Part shown: piece by piece, positions 38,433 through 62,485 of the stretch
Layout: the number at the start of each line of letters is the position of its first letter
Position numbering within the stretch: the stretch's first letter is position 1
DNA from: a virus
IMG/VR virus record: IMGVR_UViG_3300036770_004821
Span: 7,806 to 71,805 of that record
DNA length: 64,000 bases
Reading direction: 5' to 3' (one strand)
Position numbers and translations under genes: made by a program
Notes under the pieces: model-generated
Database searches by the model: none
What the model was told of the DNA's origin: nothing
The model's input: only the letters and a program-made list of their open reading frames with translations

Positions 38433-39248
38433 ATGAAAACAGGAATAATATATTGTATTACAAATACAATAAATGGTAAACGTTATATTGGACAAACCAA
38501 AAATGAATTAAACAAAAGATGGAAAGATCATCTTAATGAAGCAAAGAAATATAATACTAGACCTCTTTACAGAGCAATAAACAAATACGGAACTGACGTT
38601 TTTAAAATTAAGATAATAGAAGAATGTAATATTGAGAACTTAAATGAAAAAGAAGCATTTTGGATAAAAAAGTTAAATACATTCAATAATGGATATAATG
38701 CTACCTCTGGTGGAGATCATTTCGATCATAGTGATAAGACAAAAGATAAAATATCCATCACTATGACAAACATTGAAAGAAATGATAATTGGAGAAAGAA
38801 TAGTGAAAATAGTTTAAAACATAAAGTTGAAAAAGGTGAATTATGGGGTTTTCTAAAAGGAAATCATTATAACCACAATAAACTTAAAAGAAAAGTAAAA
38901 GCAATTAATCTAGAAACAGGAGAAGAAACTATATTTGAAAGTATGAATAATGCTGCCTATGTAATTACAGGAAATAAAAAGTGTGCTAGTAATATATCTA
39001 ATGCTATTAAAAATGGATTTAATGTTTATGGTTATAAATGGGAAAAAATAGATAATACTCCTACAAAAATATCAGTTATTGGTATTCATAAGAGAACAGA
39101 GGAAATAATAAAGTATGAAAGTATGAGTGCTGCTGCTTTTGATTTAACAGGTGATCCAACAAAAGCAAAGGGTGGATTAAGAAAAAGTTTATCAAATCCT
39201 GGTAAAAATAGTTGGATGGGATATTATTGGTATTATCAAAATTCATAA
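38433..39248 (+). CDS. GIY-YIG (Seg-like) free-standing homing endonuclease
   Basis: GIIYCITNTINGKRYIGQT, RW..H, E..WI, GYN; two C-terminal NUMOD-like repeats (FESMNNAA / YESMSAAA ... GY.W). Confidence 0.92.
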   Translation: MKTGIIYCITNTINGKRYIGQTKNELNKRWKDHLNEAKKYNTRPLYRAINKYGTDVFKIKIIEECNIENLNEKEAFWIKKLNTFNNGYNATSGGDHFDHSDKTKDKISITMTNIERNDNWRKNSENSLKHKVEKGELWGFLKGNHYNHNKLKRKVKAINLETGEETIFESMNNAAYVITGNKKCASNISNAIKNGFNVYGYKWEKIDNTPTKISVIGIHKRTEEIIKYESMSAAAFDLTGDPTKAKGGLRKSLSNPGKNSWMGYYWYYQNS

Positions 39249-41019: not shown

Positions 41020-41529
41020 TCAGAGACTCTTATACAAACTTCCGTATTTTCCGAAAATCGTCTGAAATCTATTCAGTCGATTTCCAAGATAGATGATTGC
41101 AGATTGAAATGGTGCTGCGCTCTTTCCTTCACCAAACTTCAATCTTCGATTTATAGCAATCCAAGGATAATCAGATACTGATTTCCACCAAACAGTAGAT
41201 ACATCTAATTTGATGAGAAGTATCATTTCTTTACTATTTCCTTTTTCATATTGATTCACTGCATAAGGTATCCAATTCTTACTGTCACTGTAAGGATGAT
41301 TCATAAAAACAGAATCTGCAATCCAATCGTGTTGCAATCCATTTGTGATTTCTGTGAATACTCTTTTTGCAGGAACATTTGGATTATTTTCATCATTTGA
41401 GCAAGGGTCTAAATCAACCTCACCTTCAAAAAATACAAGTACATCCTCTACAAATGATTTTGGAGTATTCCAACAATCAGTTCGATTTCCTGTCGATGCT
41501 GTGAGTGCTTTAAGCGCGGTTGAAGTCAT
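41020..41529 (-). CDS. Phage-type DNA N6-adenine methyltransferase
   Basis: WNTP, VDLDPCS, NGL..DW, VFMNHPYS (NPPY-like), RLKF, APF.SAI. Confidence 0.85.
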   Translation of the reverse strand: MTSTALKALTASTGNRTDCWNTPKSFVEDVLVFFEGEVDLDPCSNDENNPNVPAKRVFTEITNGLQHDWIADSVFMNHPYSDSKNWIPYAVNQYEKGNSKEMILLIKLDVSTVWWKSVSDYPWIAINRRLKFGEGKSAAPFQSAIIYLGNRLNRFQTIFGKYGSLYKSL

Positions 41530-48623: not shown

Positions 48624-49031
48624 TCAAAAATTGCGATTGAACACATAATTGTTGTTGATTACATAATCCCAAGCAAGATCCTTGGCAAAGGCATCATAAT
48701 CAATGTAGGATTCAAGTTCTTCGGGAACAAGATGCCCGTAAATCTCATTGAAGAAGTTTTCAGCAAAGGAGTCAAAATCACTCCATTCACCATTGTAGGC
48801 ATCATCAAAGTTATCCAGATTATCAAATCCAAACTCTGCGACAAAGGCATCTACCGCATCATAACTGACACTTTCACCAATCCGCACAAAATCCTCATAG
48901 TATTTCACAAAGGTATCTTCACCATACTCGTTAATGAAAACATAAATGTCTTCCTCATAATAAGAATCTTCGACAAGACCAGCAATGTATTCTTGAGTGG
49001 ATTCTTTGAGTTGAACTTGAGTTGCGGTCAT
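48624..49031 (-). CDS. ardA: ArdA-like anti-restriction (DNA mimic) protein
   Basis: FDDAYNGEWSDFDSFAE...VPEELESYIDYDAFAKDL..DY...NYVF; very acidic; start MTATQ. Confidence 0.75.
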   Translation of the reverse strand: MTATQVQLKESTQEYIAGLVEDSYYEEDIYVFINEYGEDTFVKYYEDFVRIGESVSYDAVDAFVAEFGFDNLDNFDDAYNGEWSDFDSFAENFFNEIYGHLVPEELESYIDYDAFAKDLAWDYVINNNYVFNRNF

Positions 49032-49058
49032 TTGCGTTTCCTTTGCTTGTGTCCTTGT

Positions 49059-49118
49059 ATTATAGGGCATCCGGTGCCCCAGTGGGGGTTTAGTGTGCCA
49101 GTCTGAAAACTGGCACAC
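49059..49118 (-). promoter_or_regulatory. Palindrome-promoter cassette (family A)
   Basis: gtgtgccagt-ctgaaa-actggcacac, 30 bp from TATAAT. Confidence 0.85.
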
Positions 49119-49436
49119 TCACTGCTTGGCAGTCCAGTTCATAATCTCCAGCATAGTTTCTGGAGTGATCCACCCCAGAACCTGATCACCTTCTGGACAC
49201 CCTGGAAAATCGGTGGAGAATTTATCATCAGGAGTGAACACTGCAATTTCTGCATCTTCACTGTGAAATCCTCCCCAAATGGGAACAGTTGCACGATGAT
49301 CAACATCCACAAATCTATTTTGGCAGTAGTTTCCCCCGCCGAACATTACACTGACCCTCCACCCGTTGGCGAAGGTGATTTGAAATCCCTTTTCAGCAAA
49401 TGTAGAGAACAACGTAGGATTGAGGAGGTTAGTCAC
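49119..49436 (-). CDS. Hypothetical protein (paralog of 42476-42739)
   Basis: GFQITFANGWRVSVMFGGGNYC...AEIAV...VLGWITPE; GTG start assumed. Confidence 0.65.
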   Translation of the reverse strand: MTNLLNPTLFSTFAEKGFQITFANGWRVSVMFGGGNYCQNRFVDVDHRATVPIWGGFHSEDAEIAVFTPDDKFSTDFPGCPEGDQVLGWITPETMLEIMNWTAKQ

Positions 49437-49464
49437 TGTGAGGTTCCTTTGCTTGTGTCCTTGT

Positions 49465-49524
49465 ATTATAGGGCATCCGGTGCCCCAGTGGGGGTGTAGT
49501 GTGCCAGTAGAACAAGTGGCACAC
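49465..49524 (-). promoter_or_regulatory. Palindrome-promoter cassette (family A)
   Basis: gtgtgccagt-agaaca-agtggcacac, 30 bp from TATAAT. Confidence 0.85.
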
Positions 49525-49531
49525 TGTATAA

Positions 49532-49870
49532 TCAATTACCCTGCATTTGCTCCCTACGATTGAGTTCCTTTTCTACCGCAATTTCAAGATGCTCTTTGAT
49601 AATAGAATTAATAGTAGATTCTATCCGACCTTCAAAATGAGCAATGAGGTCATACCATTTATTATTCGCAACCCTACGAGCAATCTTATTCGTAAAATAT
49701 TCATCATAACGGAGAATTTCACTCACATTAGATTTAACCATATCACGAATTGAATCTTGGTCGGTAAATTCTTTTTTGCGAGTCTCAAGTTCTTCGAGAA
49801 GATAATTCAGACCAGCAATAAGATTGTCAATCTTAACCAGATTATCGTTCAGAGTAGTGGTAGGAGTCAT
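49532..49870 (-). CDS. Helical hypothetical protein, probably co-transcribed with the E1 gene
   Basis: 112 aa; no cassette promoter between it and the ThiF gene. Confidence 0.65.
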   Translation of the reverse strand: MTPTTTLNDNLVKIDNLIAGLNYLLEELETRKKEFTDQDSIRDMVKSNVSEILRYDEYFTNKIARRVANNKWYDLIAHFEGRIESTINSIIKEHLEIAVEKELNRREQMQGN

Positions 49871-49911
49871 TTTAAGAAATTGATTAGTAAAAGTGAACTG
49901 AAGAAATTAAA

Positions 49912-50622
49912 TCAGGAAACCGTGGTTTTCAGATTGCGAAGATTGAAGAACATAGAACTTTGGTTCTTATCGAAGAATCCATCCAGGAAGTTTTGAATCA
50001 CCATCAGAGTAAGTGATGCTGCAAGAAAGTTTGCGGAAATCAGTTGAGGACGACTCGGTGCGTTCAGAGAACAAGAACCTTCGGACGGAATACTATCTTG
50101 AGGACGTTCGATGTTGGGATAAACATCTGCGGGATTGCAACCCACGTTCTCACCATTTACTTTACCAAACCAAAGAACTTGACCACGCACATCTTCAAGA
50201 CCATCAGAATTGCCTGGAGTGATGAAGATGTAGTCACCTTCACAAAAGGCCTTCATTGTGTTGATGATTGCAAGTCGAGTGGCATCATTATCCACCGAAC
50301 ACACAACCAGAGGACAAACAGAACGTCGGAGCATCGGAATAAACGTCGAGGCAGAAATGAAACTTTCCTTAGACTCAACATTGCTAAGACCCTGATATGC
50401 ACAGAAGTCTACCATCGAACGTGCTTTATTCATACCAACTTGACTAGGACCAACAAGTTGTCGAGTGGTATTCTTATCCTCAAACTCATCACCATCAATA
50501 AACACGACTTTGGAATCTTGAGTATTCTGATGATACGCAATCAGACGTGCGAGTGGAGCAGCAAGATGACCACCAGTACCACCAACACCAATCACAAAAA
50601 CGTAGTCGGGAGAAAAAGTCAT
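49912..50622 (-). CDS. ThiF/E1-like ubiquitin-activating (adenylating) enzyme
   Basis: IGVGGTGG, IDGD...KNTTRQ, NKA, VDNDATR, PGN, candidate catalytic Cys184 in EGSCS...PQLISAN. Confidence 0.92.
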   Translation of the reverse strand: MTFSPDYVFVIGVGGTGGHLAAPLARLIAYHQNTQDSKVVFIDGDEFEDKNTTRQLVGPSQVGMNKARSMVDFCAYQGLSNVESKESFISASTFIPMLRRSVCPLVVCSVDNDATRLAIINTMKAFCEGDYIFITPGNSDGLEDVRGQVLWFGKVNGENVGCNPADVYPNIERPQDSIPSEGSCSLNAPSRPQLISANFLAASLTLMVIQNFLDGFFDKNQSSMFFNLRNLKTTVS

Positions 50623-50643
50623 AATTTCCTTTGGTTCCTTTAC

Positions 50644-50701
50644 AGTATAGCAGGGGATAGGTCGAAAACAGGGGTTATAGGGACACTTGCAGAAGTGTCC
50701 C
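50644..50701 (-). promoter_or_regulatory. Palindrome-promoter cassette for E1
   Basis: gggacact-tgcaga-agtgtccc, 30 bp from TATACT. Confidence 0.8.
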
Positions 50702-50709
50702 CTGATGTA

Positions 50710-51666
50710 TCAAACCTGACCAACAATCAGTCCATCGTGAGACACAAACCACCGTTTGTTGAGTTCATCTGGAGAAGTCAGATAACCAGAGAAAAACCCA
50801 CCGTTCTTTTCGATTGTAGATTCAAACAGAGGAATCATCATAATGTGTGGTGCATCTGGAACAGACTTAAATCCAGCAGTGAGCATTTGGAAAAATGCAG
50901 AAATATCTTCCGCAGCATCAAGAAGCATCAGAGCATCTGGACTTTCAGTGCTAAGAAGTTTCTCATTCTCCTTCTCATAAAACTCTCCATTGTCGGCAAG
51001 ATACCGAGTTTCTCTTGAGTTGTCTTCAAATGCCCTCATAGGCAGAAGGTCATTATTAAATGGAGTTTCAAAGTAAGCCTCAACAATACCCCTCAGAGTT
51101 TGAGGTCTATCGTTGTCTCCCCAACAAACACCCTCGGGGTAATCTGAACAACCAAAAACATTGGCAGCCATCATTGTTTCGGTGGAATGAATGTTTCCAT
51201 CGTCCCCCACCTTACCCGCAGAAAGATATGCGGTATCACCATCAAGAGAAAACTTAGAGTAATGAGTCTTCAGATGATTCAGGGCAATTCCGAATACCAT
51301 ATTGGAGAGTCGGAAGTCAATAACATCATCTTCTGCCCCGTGTCCTTCTGGGCAAGTTTGACCGTAATAACCTTCATCATACACAGCACAATGATTCCGA
51401 AGGTCTGGATGGTCCCAATTTACATCACCCTCATCATCTTCATAGTTGGAAAGAAAGTCACAGCAATTCCTAGGACAATCATCACAGAAAGCATTGTGAA
51501 AATCATCATTATCGGGTTTTACTTCCTGATGAATGTTCTTATACCCATCAGGCATCCACGCTTTAATCCAAAGATAATCAGATACGGAGAATGTAATTAT
51601 TTCCGAACCTTTAGGTAGAGGATGAACTTTAGCCTTATTTGGTTGGTTTAGAAAAATTACAGACAT
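50710..51666 (-). CDS. Prokaryotic E2-like (PRTRC protein B / Prok-E2 family D-like) protein with a Cys-rich N-terminal insert
   Basis: ANVF......GVCWGDN......IVEAYFETPFNNDL motif; start MSVIFL below its promoter. Confidence 0.7.
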   Translation of the reverse strand: MSVIFLNQPNKAKVHPLPKGSEIITFSVSDYLWIKAWMPDGYKNIHQEVKPDNDDFHNAFCDDCPRNCCDFLSNYEDDEGDVNWDHPDLRNHCAVYDEGYYGQTCPEGHGAEDDVIDFRLSNMVFGIALNHLKTHYSKFSLDGDTAYLSAGKVGDDGNIHSTETMMAANVFGCSDYPEGVCWGDNDRPQTLRGIVEAYFETPFNNDLLPMRAFEDNSRETRYLADNGEFYEKENEKLLSTESPDALMLLDAAEDISAFFQMLTAGFKSVPDAPHIMMIPLFESTIEKNGGFFSGYLTSPDELNKRWFVSHDGLIVGQV

Positions 51667-51688
51667 TTGTTTGGTTTCTTGTTCCAAC

Positions 51689-51748
51689 ATTGTAGCACGC
51701 ATCAGGGGTAAAACTGGGATATGGTGGACACTCCAAGAAGTGTCCACC
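51689..51748 (-). promoter_or_regulatory. Palindrome-promoter cassette for the E2-like gene
   Basis: ggtggacact-ccaaga-agtgtccacc, 30 bp from TACAAT. Confidence 0.8.
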
Positions 51749-51760
51749 AAAGGTATTCAA

Positions 51761-52783
51761 TCAAACAACAGTGGACATAAGGTCTTCACTTTCAACTTCA
51801 AGATAATCATCGAGGTCTTTTACGAAATCCTCAAGTTCATCTTTAAGTTTGTAGAGAAGCATTGGATTGTCTAGATGTTGCTCCAGATAGTCGGCAAGAG
51901 TATCTGTAATGTTCCAACAGTCAATCTTATGATTAGAATTGTAGGAATTACTCCAGTAGAATGGGTCATTCTTATAATCCGTGTAATCATTACCCCAACC
52001 CAAGTTCTTAGGATTGCTATATTGAGACTTACTGTAAGTACCAGTAGATACTTTCTTCGACCAAACAACTGCTTTGATTGCTGGTTTGGTGAAGTCTACA
52101 TAATTGATAACATCTGGATGAAACTCTACTCCAGGACAAGCAGAAGCATCAATCAGTTTATCAAATTGAACTTCAAACCGACGACGAGAACCAACAACAG
52201 AAGCAGCAATTCGATATTTCATATTGGTGGTGTCAATAGAACCCACAACAATATGAATACCAGGGTCATTCAGTTCATATTTGTCATCAATAGAACTGAA
52301 GAACGCTTCCATAGTATTATGACTATGCGAAGAACCCACAGGAATCCAACCATCAGGAGGATACTGAGTGATTTCTTCACCAGTCTCCAGGTCGATAGAA
52401 ACATCGAAATCTTCTGCTCGCACAGAAGCAGCAGAGACTTTCTGATAAGGAATCAGAAAACGATACTTAGAAGGGTCTTCTGCACTACGAAGGATGCGAG
52501 TAGAAACTTCTACCGTATCTTGAACTTTGTCTACAAAGTAGAAACAGAGTTTGACCCACTTTGTCCACAGGTCAGCAGGAATACGGTGAATATCCTCTCG
52601 CAGTTGAAACTCCTCAAGGTGCTTATCACTAATTTCTACATTTGCATCAGGGTCATCTGCTTCTCGCAGATAGGAACCCCAAGGACCATCATATACTTCC
52701 CACACACCATCCCTACGAGTTCGAAGAATGGTGGGAGATTGAACTTCTTGAACTTCTTGATTTTCTTCAGTAAGAGTGGTCAT
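51761..52783 (-). CDS. JAB/JAMM (Mov34) metallopeptidase
   Basis: Exact HxH-x7-S-x2-D motif (HSHNTMEAFFSSID), upstream VEVS and PYQKVSAASV, downstream GIHIVVG. Confidence 0.9.
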   Translation of the reverse strand: MTTLTEENQEVQEVQSPTILRTRRDGVWEVYDGPWGSYLREADDPDANVEISDKHLEEFQLREDIHRIPADLWTKWVKLCFYFVDKVQDTVEVSTRILRSAEDPSKYRFLIPYQKVSAASVRAEDFDVSIDLETGEEITQYPPDGWIPVGSSHSHNTMEAFFSSIDDKYELNDPGIHIVVGSIDTTNMKYRIAASVVGSRRRFEVQFDKLIDASACPGVEFHPDVINYVDFTKPAIKAVVWSKKVSTGTYSKSQYSNPKNLGWGNDYTDYKNDPFYWSNSYNSNHKIDCWNITDTLADYLEQHLDNPMLLYKLKDELEDFVKDLDDYLEVESEDLMSTVV

Positions 52784-52803
52784 TTTGAATAATTCAGGAT
52801 AGC

Positions 52804-52844
52804 AAAATACTTCCCATTGAGGAAAAAATCCTCAATGGGAAGTA
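52804..52844 (-). terminator. 16-bp stem-loop followed by TTTT between Ubl and JAB
   Basis: tacttcccattgagga-aaaaa-tcctcaatgggaagta. Confidence 0.7.
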
Positions 52845-52863
52845 GGAAAACAAAGGGAGTAAC

Positions 52864-53124
52864 TCAACCCTTGCTCTCAGAAGTTACAGCCCCCCTAATG
52901 CTCTCACCAGCACGCACAACGGTATCACCAGGCACAATCTCGGTGTTCAGAACAAAGCGGTTGATTCGACTCACATCACCCAGAGAATGACCGTACTCAC
53001 CGAACAGTTGGGAAACAGTTTTGCCACGGAACTGATCGGAAGTCAGAGTGATGCTCTCCTCGTTGAGGTACAGAGTCACAGGAGCGGTTTGGTCAGCGGT
53101 GCGGATTTGATCGAAGAAAGACAT
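52864..53124 (-). CDS. Ubiquitin-like (beta-grasp) protein ending in ...SESKG
   Basis: 86 aa from MSFFDQ; VTLYL..SITL, GKTVSQLF, FVLNTEIV.GDTVVRAGESI pattern; C-terminal Gly; operon context. Confidence 0.8.
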   Translation of the reverse strand: MSFFDQIRTADQTAPVTLYLNEESITLTSDQFRGKTVSQLFGEYGHSLGDVSRINRFVLNTEIVPGDTVVRAGESIRGAVTSESKG

Positions 53125-53186
53125 GATAAAGAAAAGAGTAGAGGTCAAATGTTGGATGAAAGAGTCACCTTCTCACCAACCCCATA

Positions 53187-53244
53187 ATCATAGCACCTTA
53201 ACGGTGTGATTGGGGGTGTGTGTGGACAGTTCCGAAACCGGACC
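53187..53244 (-). promoter_or_regulatory. Palindrome-promoter cassette for Ubl
   Basis: tggacagt-tccgaa-accggacc, 30 bp from TATGAT. Confidence 0.65.
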
Positions 53245-53284
53245 TGGAGAAAGTGGTTAAGACCCTTCCCTGCCAACTGAAATC

Positions 53285-53343
53285 AGTATAACACGGATTG
53301 AGGGTCTCACAAGCGGGAGTGTGCCACTAGAACAAGTGGCACA
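53285..53343 (-). promoter_or_regulatory. Palindrome-promoter cassette (second, tandem, upstream of Ubl)
   Basis: tgtgccact-agaaca-agtggcaca, 30 bp from TATACT. Confidence 0.8.
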
Positions 53344-53355
53344 TCAGGTAAGAAA

Positions 53356-53607
53356 CTACCAAACTCCCCGTTTGATATGATAGTTACGAATTTCCTTGAA
53401 AAGGAATTCTTTCAGTTTAACATCATCAGTTTTTTCGTATGCCTCATACAGACGATTTACATAATCCTCTTGTTTGACACACTTGACTACTTTTGCTGTA
53501 GTTACACCCAGATCATTGAGAGGAGAACCTGCTTTCCTGCGAGGTTGTGAAACAGCACCAGAAGTTCTAAACTTTGTTTTTATTTTAGAAAGATTGGAAG
53601 TAGTCAT
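53356..53607 (-). CDS. Basic hypothetical protein
   Basis: 83-aa ORF. Confidence 0.7.
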   Translation of the reverse strand: MTTSNLSKIKTKFRTSGAVSQPRRKAGSPLNDLGVTTAKVVKCVKQEDYVNRLYEAYEKTDDVKLKEFLFKEIRNYHIKRGVW

Positions 53608-53813
53608 TAGTTACAAGCAAGAATCAGATTTGCTACCCTATTTTCAGGAACAAAGTCCTGAAGTTTATCGTAAACACCTTCAAACTGTTGAATGATGTTT
53701 GTATAATATGCAGCAAGATGAGGTTCCTCAAAAATCTCTGCGTCTTTTACTTTATAGTCAAGAGCAGAGATAATGTCTAGGATTTCACCGGAGGTCAAAG
53801 AAATAGAAGTCAT
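53607..53813 (-). CDS. Hypothetical protein
   Basis: 68 aa, TAATG coupling. Confidence 0.65.
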   Translation of the reverse strand: MTSISLTSGEILDIISALDYKVKDAEIFEEPHLAAYYTNIIQQFEGVYDKLQDFVPENRVANLILACN

Positions 53814-54430: not shown

Positions 54431-55672
54431 TCAGGTAACTAGAACCTGACCCTTGACAAAGATCGTATCAACAACATTTTGAAGTTGTCGAGCAATCTTA
54501 TCACCATAGTTGTTCTGGACGGGAACAGTGATGGTGCCGAATGGTTTGCGATACAGTTCAAATTGACCGGGTTTGACCGTGCCATTTTGAATTGCTTTGC
54601 GATCATCCTTACTCATACGGATCACACGACCAATGGTCTGTGCCATTTCAATCAGGGGAAGATTGCGAAGCATAATACAATGAGTAAGTCCATGTACGTT
54701 CATTCCTTCGGAAAGAATAGAGTAATGAAACACAATCATCTTTTTGATGGGATCATTACCACACTCTGCCATTTTGTCGAAGAATACTTCACGAGACACT
54801 TTCTTCTTGTTGATGTAACCACCGTGCTTGCTGGTGATATGAAATACGGTAAATCCCATATCATTCAGTTGTTGAAGCAGATCACTTTCAGTGAACATAC
54901 CCCAAATTACTTTGGTGCTGGGAGAAGCAACAAGCACTTTGGGAGTGATACTATCATCAATCTCTTTGAGAATACCGATGACATTTTCCGCATCTACAAA
55001 TGCAGCATTTTCTTTTGTGCGAGTGGTTTCAGACTTATAAGTATGAACCCGAGGAGGAATGATTGAACCAGCATCCAGCAGTTCCGTAGCAGGCACAGAA
55101 ATAAGATTCTGACCGTACACACGGGTATTATTCATAGATTCTTCACTGTTCTTATACTTGGGAGTTGCGGTGAAGAAATAAGCATTTTCTGCGAACTCGG
55201 AGATGTGAGCAACACCTACAAAGTTGCTGGGTTTGGTGCAATGATGTGCCTCATCAAAATAGACAACATCAATGTCAATTCCAGAGTCATTTACACGACC
55301 AATGGAATTGTAGGTAGTAAAAATAAACCGATGATTTCCTGCTTCTTTTGCTGCTGCGTGATAGTTTGCGATGATGTGAGGACGGGTGGAGGATTGATGA
55401 TGAGTTTCTCCACTGTGGCAATGAATATAAGTAATATCCATACCTTTCAGGTAGTCTTCAAACTCTGCAGAGAGTTGATTGGCAAGAAGAATACGAGGAG
55501 CAACGACAACAAATGTCATCGTATGCTGAGCATCAAGAATACGATGACGGGCATCCTCCATCATCACAGCAGTCTTACCACCACCAGTAGGAATGTAGAC
55601 AGTACCTTTGGAGTGATTTTGAACAGCAGTCAGGGCACGTTGTTGATAAGGAAGGAGAGTGAACATAATCAA
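54431..55672 (-). CDS. Superfamily-2 DEAH-box helicase/ATPase
   Basis: LLPYQ, PTGGGKT, APRILLANQ, FDEAHH, TAT, LSEG, QTIGRVIR. Confidence 0.9.
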   Translation of the reverse strand: MIMFTLLPYQQRALTAVQNHSKGTVYIPTGGGKTAVMMEDARHRILDAQHTMTFVVVAPRILLANQLSAEFEDYLKGMDITYIHCHSGETHHQSSTRPHIIANYHAAAKEAGNHRFIFTTYNSIGRVNDSGIDIDVVYFDEAHHCTKPSNFVGVAHISEFAENAYFFTATPKYKNSEESMNNTRVYGQNLISVPATELLDAGSIIPPRVHTYKSETTRTKENAAFVDAENVIGILKEIDDSITPKVLVASPSTKVIWGMFTESDLLQQLNDMGFTVFHITSKHGGYINKKKVSREVFFDKMAECGNDPIKKMIVFHYSILSEGMNVHGLTHCIMLRNLPLIEMAQTIGRVIRMSKDDRKAIQNGTVKPGQFELYRKPFGTITVPVQNNYGDKIARQLQNVVDTIFVKGQVLVT

Positions 55673-62005: not shown

Positions 62006-62064
62006 ATTATAGCAGGCATCAGGTGCTGTTGGGTGATATAGTGGACGGTTCAAAAACTGTCACA
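62006..62064 (-). promoter_or_regulatory. Palindrome-promoter cassette
   Basis: tggacggt-tcaaaa-actgtcac, 30 bp from TATAAT. Confidence 0.7.
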
Positions 62065-62485
62065 TCGTCATCAGTATTCCGTGAAGATGATCTATTTCGT
62101 GTTGAAGTATTCTAGCAGATAGTCCTTCATAAGTATCAACACAGGGATGACCTTTAATGTTTCTATATTTTACTACCACAGAATTATATCTTTTCTTTTC
62201 TATGAAAGTTCCTGGTATAGATAAACATCCTTCTTCACCAGATACTATTTCATTAGATGTTGAAATAATTTCTGGGTTGATGAATACCTTTGGTTGATTG
62301 TCAATCAAAGCAATCACGATTTGTTTAAGTATTCCACATTGAGGTGCTGATAATCCAATTCCATTATTAGAAATCATTGTATCAATTAATGATACACACA
62401 AATTCTTTATGGAGTCATCAATACTCGCAACTCTCTTGCTTTTTTTGCGAAGAATTCTATTCTCGTCTGTTAGAATATTTAACAT
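62060..62485 (-). CDS. def: Peptide deformylase
   Basis: GIGLSAPQ, EGCLS, QHEIDHLHG. Confidence 0.95.
   Translation of the reverse strand: MLNILTDENRILRKKSKRVASIDDSIKNLCVSLIDTMISNNGIGLSAPQCGILKQIVIALIDNQPKVFINPEIISTSNEIVSGEEGCLSIPGTFIEKKRYNSVVVKYRNIKGHPCVDTYEGLSARILQHEIDHLHGILMTM

Follow-up and report, generated by a model that had tools for sequence, protein, structure and literature searches.

A conserved gene module of probable ubiquitin-like conjugation type in a T4-like phage related to cyanomyoviruses

We found that five adjacent minus-strand genes within positions 49532-53343 of a viral DNA stretch form a module that resembles the ubiquitin-like protein (Ubl) conjugation systems of bacteria. 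The stretch analysed, called the window here, is 64,000 nucleotides long and comprises bases 7806-71805 of the IMG/VR record IMGVR_UViG_3300036770_004821, a record of 71,805 bp whose estimated completeness is about 35%. The genes encode, in this order, an 86-amino-acid Ubl, a JAB/JAMM metallopeptidase, an E2-like protein, a ThiF-type E1 and a helical protein of 112 amino acids (p112). All of them lie where the initial annotation, made from the sequence alone, had placed four described genes and a fifth open reading frame (ORF). The module is real, intact and conserved, and the order Ubl-JAB-E2-E1 noted in the window proved to be kept in 11/11 related loci, ten of which are viral contigs. We consider it probable, at roughly 60%, that the five genes constitute a self-contained and reversible Ubl conjugation cascade in which the JAB peptidase acts as the deconjugase, and that they are expressed from early-type promoters of the phage.

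Work on Ubl tagging machinery has so far dealt with cells and with the anti-phage defences of bacteria rather than with phages. In bacteria, Ubl conjugation has so far been shown to serve host defence, as in Bil and the type II cyclic-oligonucleotide-based anti-phage signalling system (CBASS), or is unexplained, as in PRTRC and Bub.

Proteins of the module

The module is not a product of chance, because both the JAB protein and E1 pass the Pfam cut-offs. The JAB gene (51761-52783, minus strand) encodes 340 amino acids with N- and C-terminal extensions. Its predicted metal site consists of E92, H153-S-H155, seven residues, S163, two residues and D166, which is the HSH-x7-S-x2-D motif read in the initial annotation. 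Prok-JAB of Pfam matched at 7.2e-6 (26.3 bits, cut-off 25), and E92, H153, H155, S163 and D166 are invariant in 9/9 sequences, likewise R21 and W35 in the N-terminal part. PRTRC_A (TIGR03735) matched at 1.4e-5, with 24.7 bits against a cut-off of 101.8 and with the match confined to the motif region 152-198.

E1 (49912-50622, minus strand) is predicted to be a single-domain ThiF-type adenylating enzyme of 236 amino acids with C184 as the candidate catalytic residue. The motifs by which it had been recognised, GVGGTGG, DGDEFEDKNTTRQ, VDNDATR and GSCS...PQ...N, are present, and Pfam ThiF matched above its cut-off (1.6e-7, 31.2 bits, cut-off 28.1). The best NCBIfam match was PRTRC_ThiF (TIGR03736) at 9.5e-15, with 54.6 bits against a cut-off of 144.75, and ThiF/ThiS-type models came next. 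In PADLOC, E1 matched the Cap2-type E1-E2 (1.6e-8) and BilD (3.4e-4, 17.4 bits, residues 3-119 only); these matches are slight, scoring 17-32 bits and covering a part of the Rossmann fold. The E1 profile gave 0 matches at E ≤ 0.001 against PDB sequences. G12xGGxGG18, D43, D45, N51, R54, Q55, K66, D111, D113 and C184 are invariant in 8/8 sequences, and E1 is predicted from them to have a Rossmann ATP site and a Cys after the adenylation core. The Cys stands in G-S-C-S in the window E1, in P-S-C-S at a similar place in the Ralstonia PRTRC ThiF and in M-S-C in the ThiF of a Bacillus phage. E1 carries neither a rhodanese nor a second domain.

The Ubl gene (52864-53124, minus strand) encodes a product that ends in SESKG and matches no family in Pfam, NCBIfam, PHROGs or PADLOC; related proteins were found in 49 clusters. 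The AlphaFold2 model has a predicted local distance difference test score (pLDDT) of 79.8 and the order strand-strand-helix-strand-strand-strand, followed by a tail, residues 84-86, with pLDDT below 50. The top Foldseek rows were TGS, ubiquitin, SUMO, MoaD, TtuB and NEDD8 (probability ~1, E ≥ 1.9e-3, TM 0.5-0.6). VIA-align gave a Z of 8.0 at the top (root-mean-square deviation (rmsd) 1.9, 63 residues aligned) and of 6.1 at rank 50, and its rows included MoaD (7.8), ISG15 (7.2), SAMP1 (7.1), BilA (8tyz_B, 6.9) and BubA (6.5). ThiS and CysO were also among the best structural matches. The model, Foldseek and VIA-align agree on the beta-grasp fold that had been proposed from the sequence pattern, and the small protein is predicted to combine this fold with a conserved near-terminal Gly on a flexible tail. 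Gly86 is invariant in 38/38 aligned relatives; it is the terminal residue in 15/38 and is followed by 1-2 further residues in 23/38. The Ubls of Bil systems show the same pattern of a Gly with a short extension, which the JAB enzyme BilC trims, according to the accessible text of two reports (PMC10557695; 10.1101/2023.09.04.556158).

The E2-like gene (50710-51666, minus strand) encodes 318 amino acids, comprising an N-terminal beta-meander, a four-Cys insert (C61, C64, C93, C105), a motif region with N169...C181-W-G...N204-x-D206, and a C-terminal alpha/beta domain at about 236-318. The NV...GVCWG...YFETPFNNDL motif given in the initial annotation is found here as N169-V170, C181-W-G and YFETPFNNDL. 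A word search gave 77 related clusters, and 133 were recovered at E ≤ 0.001 when 1.84 billion representatives were searched exhaustively with a profile. Among 40 sequences down to 17% identity, F56, C61, C64, C105, N169, C181-W-G, N204, D206 and Q317 are invariant and C93 nearly so. In the AlphaFold2 model (pLDDT 90.1), four N-terminal strands lead into the four-Cys insert and further strands follow it, with C181 placed where a hairpin ends; after this come two helices and a C-terminal domain that stands apart. When this model was compared with 48,161 chains by VIA-align, E2, UBC and UEV proteins made up 36 of the 50 best rows, with Z of only 2.9-4.5; about 72-125 residues were aligned, spanning model residues 11-238 or so and most of each E2 chain. 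The E2 rows include UbcH5, Ubc13, UBE2G2, Pex4, UbcH7, Ubc9 and UBE2O, with UbcH5c at Z 4.5 (rmsd 3.7, 108 residues aligned). We read the modelled 318-amino-acid protein as a real but heavily decorated UBC-like core, although its Z scores stay below what the guidance of VIA-align itself takes as conclusive. C181 and N169 are invariant in 40/40 sequences and the classical His before the Asn is absent; N169 and C181 may be structurally equivalent to the HPN Asn and the catalytic Cys of E2 enzymes.

Profile comparisons tentatively place the E2-like family near the E2-like proteins of PRTRC type. Prok-E2_D (PF14460) was weakly matched by 3 of 40 family members (best E 0.0091), and PRTRC_B was matched by 1 of 99 remote relatives (3.4e-4). 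PRTRC_B and Prok-E2_D are themselves linked, as all 120 listed PRTRC_B homologues carry Pfam Prok-E2_D. In hhalign, the broad E2-like family aligned with PRTRC_B at E 0.0066, with N169 and C181 placed on YFNTW...ICIG, and it aligned with gp214 of Bacillus phage vB_BceM_WH1 at a probability of 85.5% (E 5.6e-6) over ICWG...P...FF-x-PFN-x-DL. gp214 in turn matched a clostridial plasmid protein (pairwise E 0.003), and this protein matched PRTRC_B at 3e-4. The hhalign probability was 0.3% both for the broad E2-like profile against the clostridial PRTRC_B-like protein and for the PRTRC_B profile against gp214. The profile links are weak but concordant: the Cys is aligned in those of the family to PRTRC_B, gp214 and Prok-E2_D and in that of gp214 to the clostridial protein. 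The best row of the E2-like model in BFVD was a 241-amino-acid viral protein (probability 0.91, E 0.074), and the ESM Atlas held no usable match. A structural or lectin-like protein was also considered and rejected, since the Foldseek rows for rotavirus VP8* reached only TM 0.1-0.2 and a probability of at most 0.18. A subgroup from high-GC contigs (e.g. locus L013, 5959-7032) has a conserved C-terminal tail, P-C-x-S-P-x-P-S-S-S-x-L-A-A-x-A-A-S, which is absent from the window protein.

The fifth gene (49532-49870, minus strand) encodes p112. A p112 homologue follows E1 in 9/11 related loci and was not detected in L006 and L008; the ORF after E1 thus belongs to the module. Its N-terminal stretch is conserved and helix-like, of the type NDNLVK-DNLI--LNYLLEE, and the homologues in distant contigs have 191-193 amino acids. 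All Pfam matches of p112 were below the cut-off, and NCBIfam and PHROGs gave none. The ESM Atlas contained only a viral cluster at 0.78, and the Atlas model is poor (pLDDT 0.53). A 22-bit PADLOC match to part of a CARF-HEPN model was taken as chance on a helical sequence.

Relatives in phages, plasmids and bacterial systems

The 11 related loci are eight IMG/VR loci found with the E2-like protein as a query, one contig of a metagenome-assembled genome (MAG) and two distant high-GC viral contigs. In the eight IMG/VR loci the order Ubl-JAB-E2-E1 is seen wherever the locus reaches, with identities to the window of 55-86% for the Ubl, 50-59% for the JAB protein, 37-50% for the E2-like protein and 67-73% for E1. 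The MAG contig, 4 kb long and holding just the module, was the only match among the genomes of 185,579 prokaryote species; this search relied on one peptide pattern of the E2-like family, so that absence from other prokaryote genomes is unproven. The two distant high-GC contigs, found with a remote subgroup of the E2-like family as the query, have the same order with E1 45-49% identical, and their E2-like protein is 28% identical or undetectable by tblastn yet present as an ORF. The genes flanking the module in the window, ArdA, orf138 and p83, are not conserved beside it; the helicase is found several kb downstream in 3 loci. In 50,697 phage records, from which the window's own may have been excluded, neither a nucleotide search with the region nor tblastn with the E2-like protein gave a match. 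None of the five module proteins matched PHROGs.

Related modules are nevertheless carried by cultured phages. E1 relatives with 25-29% identity were found in three Bacillus jumbo phages (vB_BceM_WH1, Edson and vB_BauM_KLEB27-3) and in one uncultured phage record. In vB_BceM_WH1 the run consists of gp211, gp212, gp213, gp214 (E2-like), gp215 (JAB) and gp216 (ThiF), followed by NADAR and SPFH proteins; gp215 matched PRTRC_A at 3.3e-8 and gp216 matched PRTRC_ThiF at 2e-29. gp211 (L016:4789-5688, corresponding to 178788-179687 of the vB_BceM_WH1 record; see also L010:2713-5807) is annotated by its depositors as a 'virion structural protein'. It is made of five tandem PRTRC_C-type Ubl units, each ending in AGTKG (TIGR03738, 73.6 bits, cut-off 45.95, 5 stretches), and because of these five units it can be regarded as a polyubiquitin-like precursor. 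It recurs in Edson (95.7%) and in the Bacillus australimaris phage vB_BauM_KLEB27-3 (50%). These modules are like that of the window in being phage-borne, in having an E2-like protein with ICWG...P...FF-x-PFN-x-DL and Ubl units ending in KG, and in the JAB gene directly before ThiF. They differ from it in the five-repeat PRTRC_C-type poly-Ubl, in the two genes between the Ubl and the E2-like protein, in the smaller E2-like protein (241 amino acids, no four-Cys insert) and in the distance between the E1s given above. The initial annotation knew of no characterised phage example. In the literature searched, whose scope ended short of subscription journals and bioRxiv supplements, we likewise found no description of a phage-encoded Ubl-E1-E2-JAB pathway, and the Bacillus jumbo phage module is not described there as a Ubl system; an unrecognised related module is however present in these cultured phages. 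The supplementary operon tables of the Bil and Bub studies, which lie outside that scope, could list phage or prophage examples.

E1 relatives also occur in 42 plasmids, mostly large non-mobilisable plasmids of clostridia and Bacillus, and in addition PRTRC plasmids of Ralstonia and Cupriavidus. In a large, non-mobilisable Clostridium argentinense plasmid (L015, record 84534-95142), a LarE-like PP-loop protein (6.9e-4) lies between a protein of PRTRC_B type (3e-4) and a ThiF of PRTRC type (4e-17), and no ParB is among the annotated genes of the stretch. In a Ralstonia insidiosa plasmid the PRTRC_B gene (L009:4607-5328) lies in two frames (62 and 178 amino acids) and has no entry in the gene table; a frameshift or a pseudogene is probable.

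Among named systems, the PRTRC cassettes of conjugative plasmids and integrative conjugative elements (ICEs) (TIGR03735-03738 and others) are the best-scoring relatives of the window E1 and JAB protein. The resemblance to PRTRC that the initial annotation had pointed out is seen in the matches of E1 to PRTRC_ThiF and of the JAB protein to PRTRC_A, and in the weak link of the E2-like protein to PRTRC_B and Prok-E2_D. In both kinds of module the Ubl is small and has KG close to its end, an E2-like Cys protein is present (PRTRC_B in the cassettes) and E1 contains the 'SCS' Cys motif. In the two PRTRC Ubls inspected, 3-5 residues come after ...AGAKG, so the statement that PRTRC Ubls also end in KG is nearly right; PRTRC_C resembles the window Ubl in fold and KG ending only. 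In PRTRC plasmids the JAB gene stands directly before ThiF and the cassette is on a mobile element beside a DNA methylase; the Ralstonia cassette adjoins an N6 DNA methylase and ParB. The PRTRC order is C-F-B-A-ThiF, in contrast to Ubl-JAB-E2-E1-p112 in the window. ParB, E and F genes are directly beside the cassette in PRTRC plasmids, whereas the window lacks these proteins and all its scores are far below the family cut-offs. As had been noted from the sequence, no ParB or PRTRC accessory protein was found among the seven module and flanking proteins (Pfam, NCBIfam) or among 30 further ORFs of 40-61 kb, which were compared with Pfam only, without the NCBIfam E and F models. The window E2-like protein has 318 amino acids, a four-Cys insert, an extra C-terminal domain and FNNDL, whereas PRTRC_B has about 240 amino acids and FTH. 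The carrier also differs, being a lytic-type T4-like phage rather than a conjugative plasmid or ICE.

The operon type 6d of Iyer, Burroughs and Aravind (2006) has the same five parts as the window module, as far as the accessible portion of that survey describes it: a Ubl with a C-terminal Gly, a JAB protein, a stand-alone E1 without rhodanese, an E2-like protein without the classical His and a fast-evolving helical protein (PMC1779556). Its JAB-N domain has a conserved Arg and Trp (PMC1779556), and the N-terminal extension of the window JAB protein has R21 and W35; this likeness, and that of the helical protein, is one of description. Unlike the window protein, the 6d E2-like protein keeps an absolutely conserved downstream His, and type 6d was described in that portion from bacterial genomes, not from a phage (PMC1779556). 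Bil combines a Ubl, an E2, a JAB-type deubiquitinase (DUB) and an E1 in one operon, with a trimmed post-Gly tail that part of the window family also shows (accessible text of PMC10557695). BilD, as described there, is multidomain, with inactive and active adenylation domains and a Cys domain, whereas the window E1 is one domain of 236 amino acids (PMC10557695). The Bil order is Ubl-E2-DUB-E1 against Ubl-DUB-E2-E1 in the window, and PADLOC gave no BilA, BilB or BilC match for the Ubl, JAB and E2-like proteins, only the partial BilD match of E1. Bil is a host system against phages, whereas the window module is phage-borne. Type II CBASS (Cap2/Cap3) and Bub share bacterial E1/E2/JAB-type conjugation machinery with it. 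In Cap2, E1 and E2 are fused, the cyclase itself is what becomes conjugated and there is no free Ubl, whereas E1 and the E2-like protein of the window are separate, each with an invariant Cys. Bub uses oxyester intermediates and a peptidase-E1 fusion, according to the accessible text of PMC11601596, whereas E1 and the E2-like protein keep their Cys residues. The module is best explained as working like Bil and PRTRC-type systems while being a member of neither by their models.

Proposed cascade and competing explanations

We infer the chemical steps, the zinc site, the dimer and the target below from the folds, catalytic motifs, conservation and gene order. The Ubl would be made from its own palindrome-promoter cassette with a terminator-like hairpin behind the gene; because of this arrangement it may outnumber the enzymes. 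In relatives that carry 1-2 residues after the Gly, the JAB protein would trim them. As the window Ubl already ends at Gly86, the JAB protein here may mainly remove or edit conjugates. E1, probably as a ThiF/MoeB-like homodimer, would adenylate Gly86 with ATP and take the Ubl onto C184. The Ubl would then pass to C181 of the E2-like protein, which is predicted to have a very divergent UBC fold, a four-Cys and probably zinc-binding insert and an extra C-terminal domain. N169 may play the role of the Asn in HPN of E2 enzymes, and N204 and D206 may be the downstream acidic or polar residues. Finally, the Ubl would be joined to lysines of targets, which the extra E2 domains, p112 or both may choose. 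We lean towards host proteins as the target, either in takeover or against host defence, because the module lies among early genes with ArdA and Dam and because its PRTRC relatives have ParB and a DNA methylase as neighbours on conjugative plasmids.

Several results weigh against this cascade. The E2 assignment is the weak link. All VIA-align rows of the E2-like model stay below Z 5, and proteins of other kinds appear among them at Z 4.2. Foldseek returned nothing at E ≤ 0.001 for the model in PDB and BFVD. The UBC fold that the initial annotation had expected at 50710-51666 is favoured by the preponderance of E2-type rows, but not by the size of the Z scores or by Foldseek. Two E2-like profiles (A1 and A5) found no E2 among PDB sequences (0 and 5 chance-level matches), and the window protein matched no Prok-E2 model in Pfam or NCBIfam and nothing in PHROGs or PADLOC. 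The hhalign probability of the broad family against PRTRC_B was only 5.7%, and that of a shallower alignment against the frameshifted or truncated PRTRC_B was 0.8%. The His of the PRTRC_B and 6d motif (FTH, FTHPN) is replaced in the phage family by FNNDL. The Ubl has no sequence similarity to PRTRC_C (no NCBIfam match; hhalign probability 0.3%), and no recognisable E3 was found. The RNA-library contigs described below possibly represent DNA carry-over, and none lies on the E2-like, E1 or p112 genes, although this does not argue that those genes are silent.

The same parts could serve sulfur-carrier chemistry, in which a ThiS/MoaD-type Ubl is adenylated by E1 and then thiocarboxylated for a cofactor, a thionucleoside or another small molecule, the JAB protein only matures it and the Cys protein is a sulfur relay instead of an E2. 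The rank of the ThiF/ThiS-type models among the E1 matches is in line with this, as is the presence of MoaD, ThiS, TtuB and CysO among the best structural matches of the Ubl, and in the clostridial plasmid relative roughly 1.5 kb separates the ThiF gene from the LarE-like PP-loop protein (E 6.9e-4). GG is the usual ending of sulfur carriers, whereas the window Ubl ends in KG. E1 has no rhodanese, and no rhodanese, desulfurase, PP-loop or sulfurtransferase gene was found among the neighbourhood ORFs scanned (Pfam; seven proteins also with NCBIfam). Moreover, the conserved Cys protein, whose structural matches are E2-like, is never missing. Sets of JAB, Ubl and E1 without conjugation are known in sulfur assimilation, but the E1s of E2-containing operons never carry rhodanese, according to the accessible portion of PMC1779556. 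We regard the sulfur-carrier explanation as very unlikely. Counter-defence without conjugation, in which the JAB protein strips host tags (those of Bil on tail fibres, or Cap2-cGAS) and the Ubl, E1 and E2-like protein are decoys or sponges, appears quite unlikely. It would suit the early-gene island with ArdA and Dam, the weak PADLOC matches of E1 to Cap2-type E1-E2 and BilD, and the reliance of Bil and type II CBASS on JAB-reversible conjugation (accessible text of PMC10557695; 10.1101/2023.09.04.556158). However, the ATP site and C184 of E1 and the Cys of the E2-like protein are invariant across distant relatives, which is unexpected for decoys, the four genes are always together and the similarity to Bil and Cap2 is slight.

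It is also conceivable, though rather unlikely in our view, that conjugation takes place but is aimed at phage proteins, either the phage's own virion and assembly proteins or those of a competitor phage as a form of superinfection exclusion, comparable to what Bil does in bacteria. Bil tags the central tail fibre of a phage (accessible text of 10.1101/2023.09.04.556158), lambdoid and T1-like phages pair a Ubl (TAPI) with a JAB protein in tail assembly (accessible text of PMC1779556), and the poly-Ubl of vB_BceM_WH1 bears the depositors' virion label. On the other hand, the module is under early-type cassettes in the early hyperplastic region, at a distance from the structural genes, which occupy 1-35 kb. 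We disfavour as extremely unlikely the explanation that the module is a passenger or a decaying cassette with no function in the window phage. The region does differ in composition (G+C content 0.39-0.42 against 0.26-0.33) and is rich in shuffled cassettes, but all five frames are open, and the catalytic residues are all in place and do not vary. All related loci retain the module, with 37-89% identity per protein where matched, and a contig from another study's run contains a near-identical copy covering 49466-53700 (30 differences in 4,235 bases).

A conserved, apparently complete pathway in lytic-type phages would reverse the picture in which bacterial Ubl conjugation serves host defence or is unexplained. 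It would bring in a new E2 family, one that has diverged strongly and contains a metal-binding insert as well as an additional domain of its own. Its compactness, with a Ubl of 86 and an E1 of 236 amino acids, would suit studies of minimal E1-E2 chemistry, and it could give a first functional handle on the PRTRC plasmid cassettes. The cultured Bacillus phages with a related module make the question testable now. We see even odds for the broader proposition that tailed phages run a complete pathway of their own, with a Ubl, an E1, a new zinc-bearing E2 family, a JAB protein and a helical partner, early, to tag host, rival or own phage proteins, and that this family is widespread (133 clusters at 50% identity for the E2-like protein alone), almost confined to viral contigs and spread from freshwater T4-like to Bacillus jumbo phages, in which the Ubl is a polyubiquitin-like repeat protein. 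Ubiquitin-style tagging would in that case arm the viral side, too, in the conflict between phages and bacteria.

Promoter cassettes and genomic setting

A 22-nucleotide palindrome, GTGCCACTAGAACAAGTGGCAC, is repeated 10 times in the window at ≤3 mismatches, against 0 expected from 100 shuffles, and every copy falls between 37453 and 58506. Longer repeated cassettes of 40-95 nucleotides, including TATTATAGGGCATCCGGTGCCCCAGTGGGGG, often enclose the palindrome and are placed between small early genes. They look like mobile promoter/stem-loop units that shuffle genes, and we presume that they resemble the promoter-early stem-loop cassettes of T4-type hyperplastic regions. Upstream of the Ubl gene there is a canonical palindrome (53321-53342, no strand assigned, 0 mismatches, repeat family D1), and a promoter-like site, TTGTGA-16-TATACT with a TG extension, lies just downstream of it (53285-53312, minus strand). 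Promoter-like consensus sites in the region number 7 against 8.7 expected in shuffles, so the weight of this site comes from its position after the palindrome and not from the consensus match. A terminator-like hairpin of 16 pairs with a T-run (52808-52844, minus strand) stands between the Ubl and JAB genes; thus the JAB gene is preceded by this hairpin and not by a palindrome cassette. The hairpin would be at most a partial stop, because one RNA-library contig (52644-52894) spans it. Upstream of the E2-like gene there is a variant hairpin, GGTGGACACTTCTTGGAGTGTCCACC (51723-51748, minus strand), followed by TACAAT at 51689-51694, and upstream of E1 another (50680-50702, minus strand), followed by TATACT at 50644-50649; the latter belongs to repeat family D1 and shares 61% identity with the family's reference. 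Neither was recovered as the canonical palindrome at ≤3 mismatches. The initial annotation had put the Ubl, E2-like and E1 genes each under a palindrome-promoter cassette; this holds for the Ubl gene, but the other two have different hairpins in the same layout that are not copies. A further palindrome copy with 1 mismatch (49501-49522, no strand assigned) marks the downstream edge of the module.

A contig from a freshwater RNA library covers 52964-53549, i.e. the Ubl and the upstream gene, at a depth of 20, and three more RNA-library pieces lie on the JAB gene or the JAB/Ubl boundary at a depth of about 5, with 0-5 differences each; RNA libraries may contain DNA, and contig depth cannot rank genes. 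The coverage of the Ubl and JAB genes is a hint only of expression.

The freshwater phage is T4-like and related to cyanomyoviruses, as judged from its genes, because T4-type structural and packaging proteins are encoded at 1-35 kb (large terminase, sheath stabiliser, head closure and baseplate wedge subunits in PHROGs) and because its baseplate gp6-like protein is 55-58% identical (about 56%) to proteins of Synechococcus and Prochlorococcus myoviruses. The initial annotation had called it a cyanophage. The gp6 identity agrees with this, but a cyanobacterial host does not follow; psbA was not found in the 71.8-kb record, a result that is uninformative on the host because the record is a fragment. 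A tRNA scan gave no tRNA in the window. A peptide deformylase gene is located at 62060-62485.

Several neighbouring genes have recognisable products. ArdA antirestriction protein (48627-49070; Pfam 36.7 bits, cut-off 27) is encoded two genes downstream of the module, a Dam methyltransferase (41023-41529; Pfam) in the same early island and a ResIII/DEAD helicase (Pfam) at 54434-55666. Up to about 40 kb, where the structural genes lie, the G+C content is 0.26-0.33; across 40-58 kb it is 0.39-0.42, and the part with the higher value is a series of small minus-strand genes spaced by the repeated cassette. The rise marks an early-gene island, whose history or constraints may differ from those of the structural genes. 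Just upstream of the rise is the sole sizeable plus-strand gene of the window (38433-39248), the product of which is a homing endonuclease of GIY-YIG/HNH type (PHROGs 7e-32), and the GC skew is reversed in the 38-40 kb bin.

A lake metagenome contig of 2,624 nucleotides (run X6) was placed across 49000-53603 of the window. It joins the p83 region, a cassette near 49000-49050, and a cassette with the 5' part of the Ubl gene; unrelated stretches of 804 and 748 bases separate the joined parts. Because these unrelated bases stand at the cassettes, the contig points to a relative with other genes inserted there.

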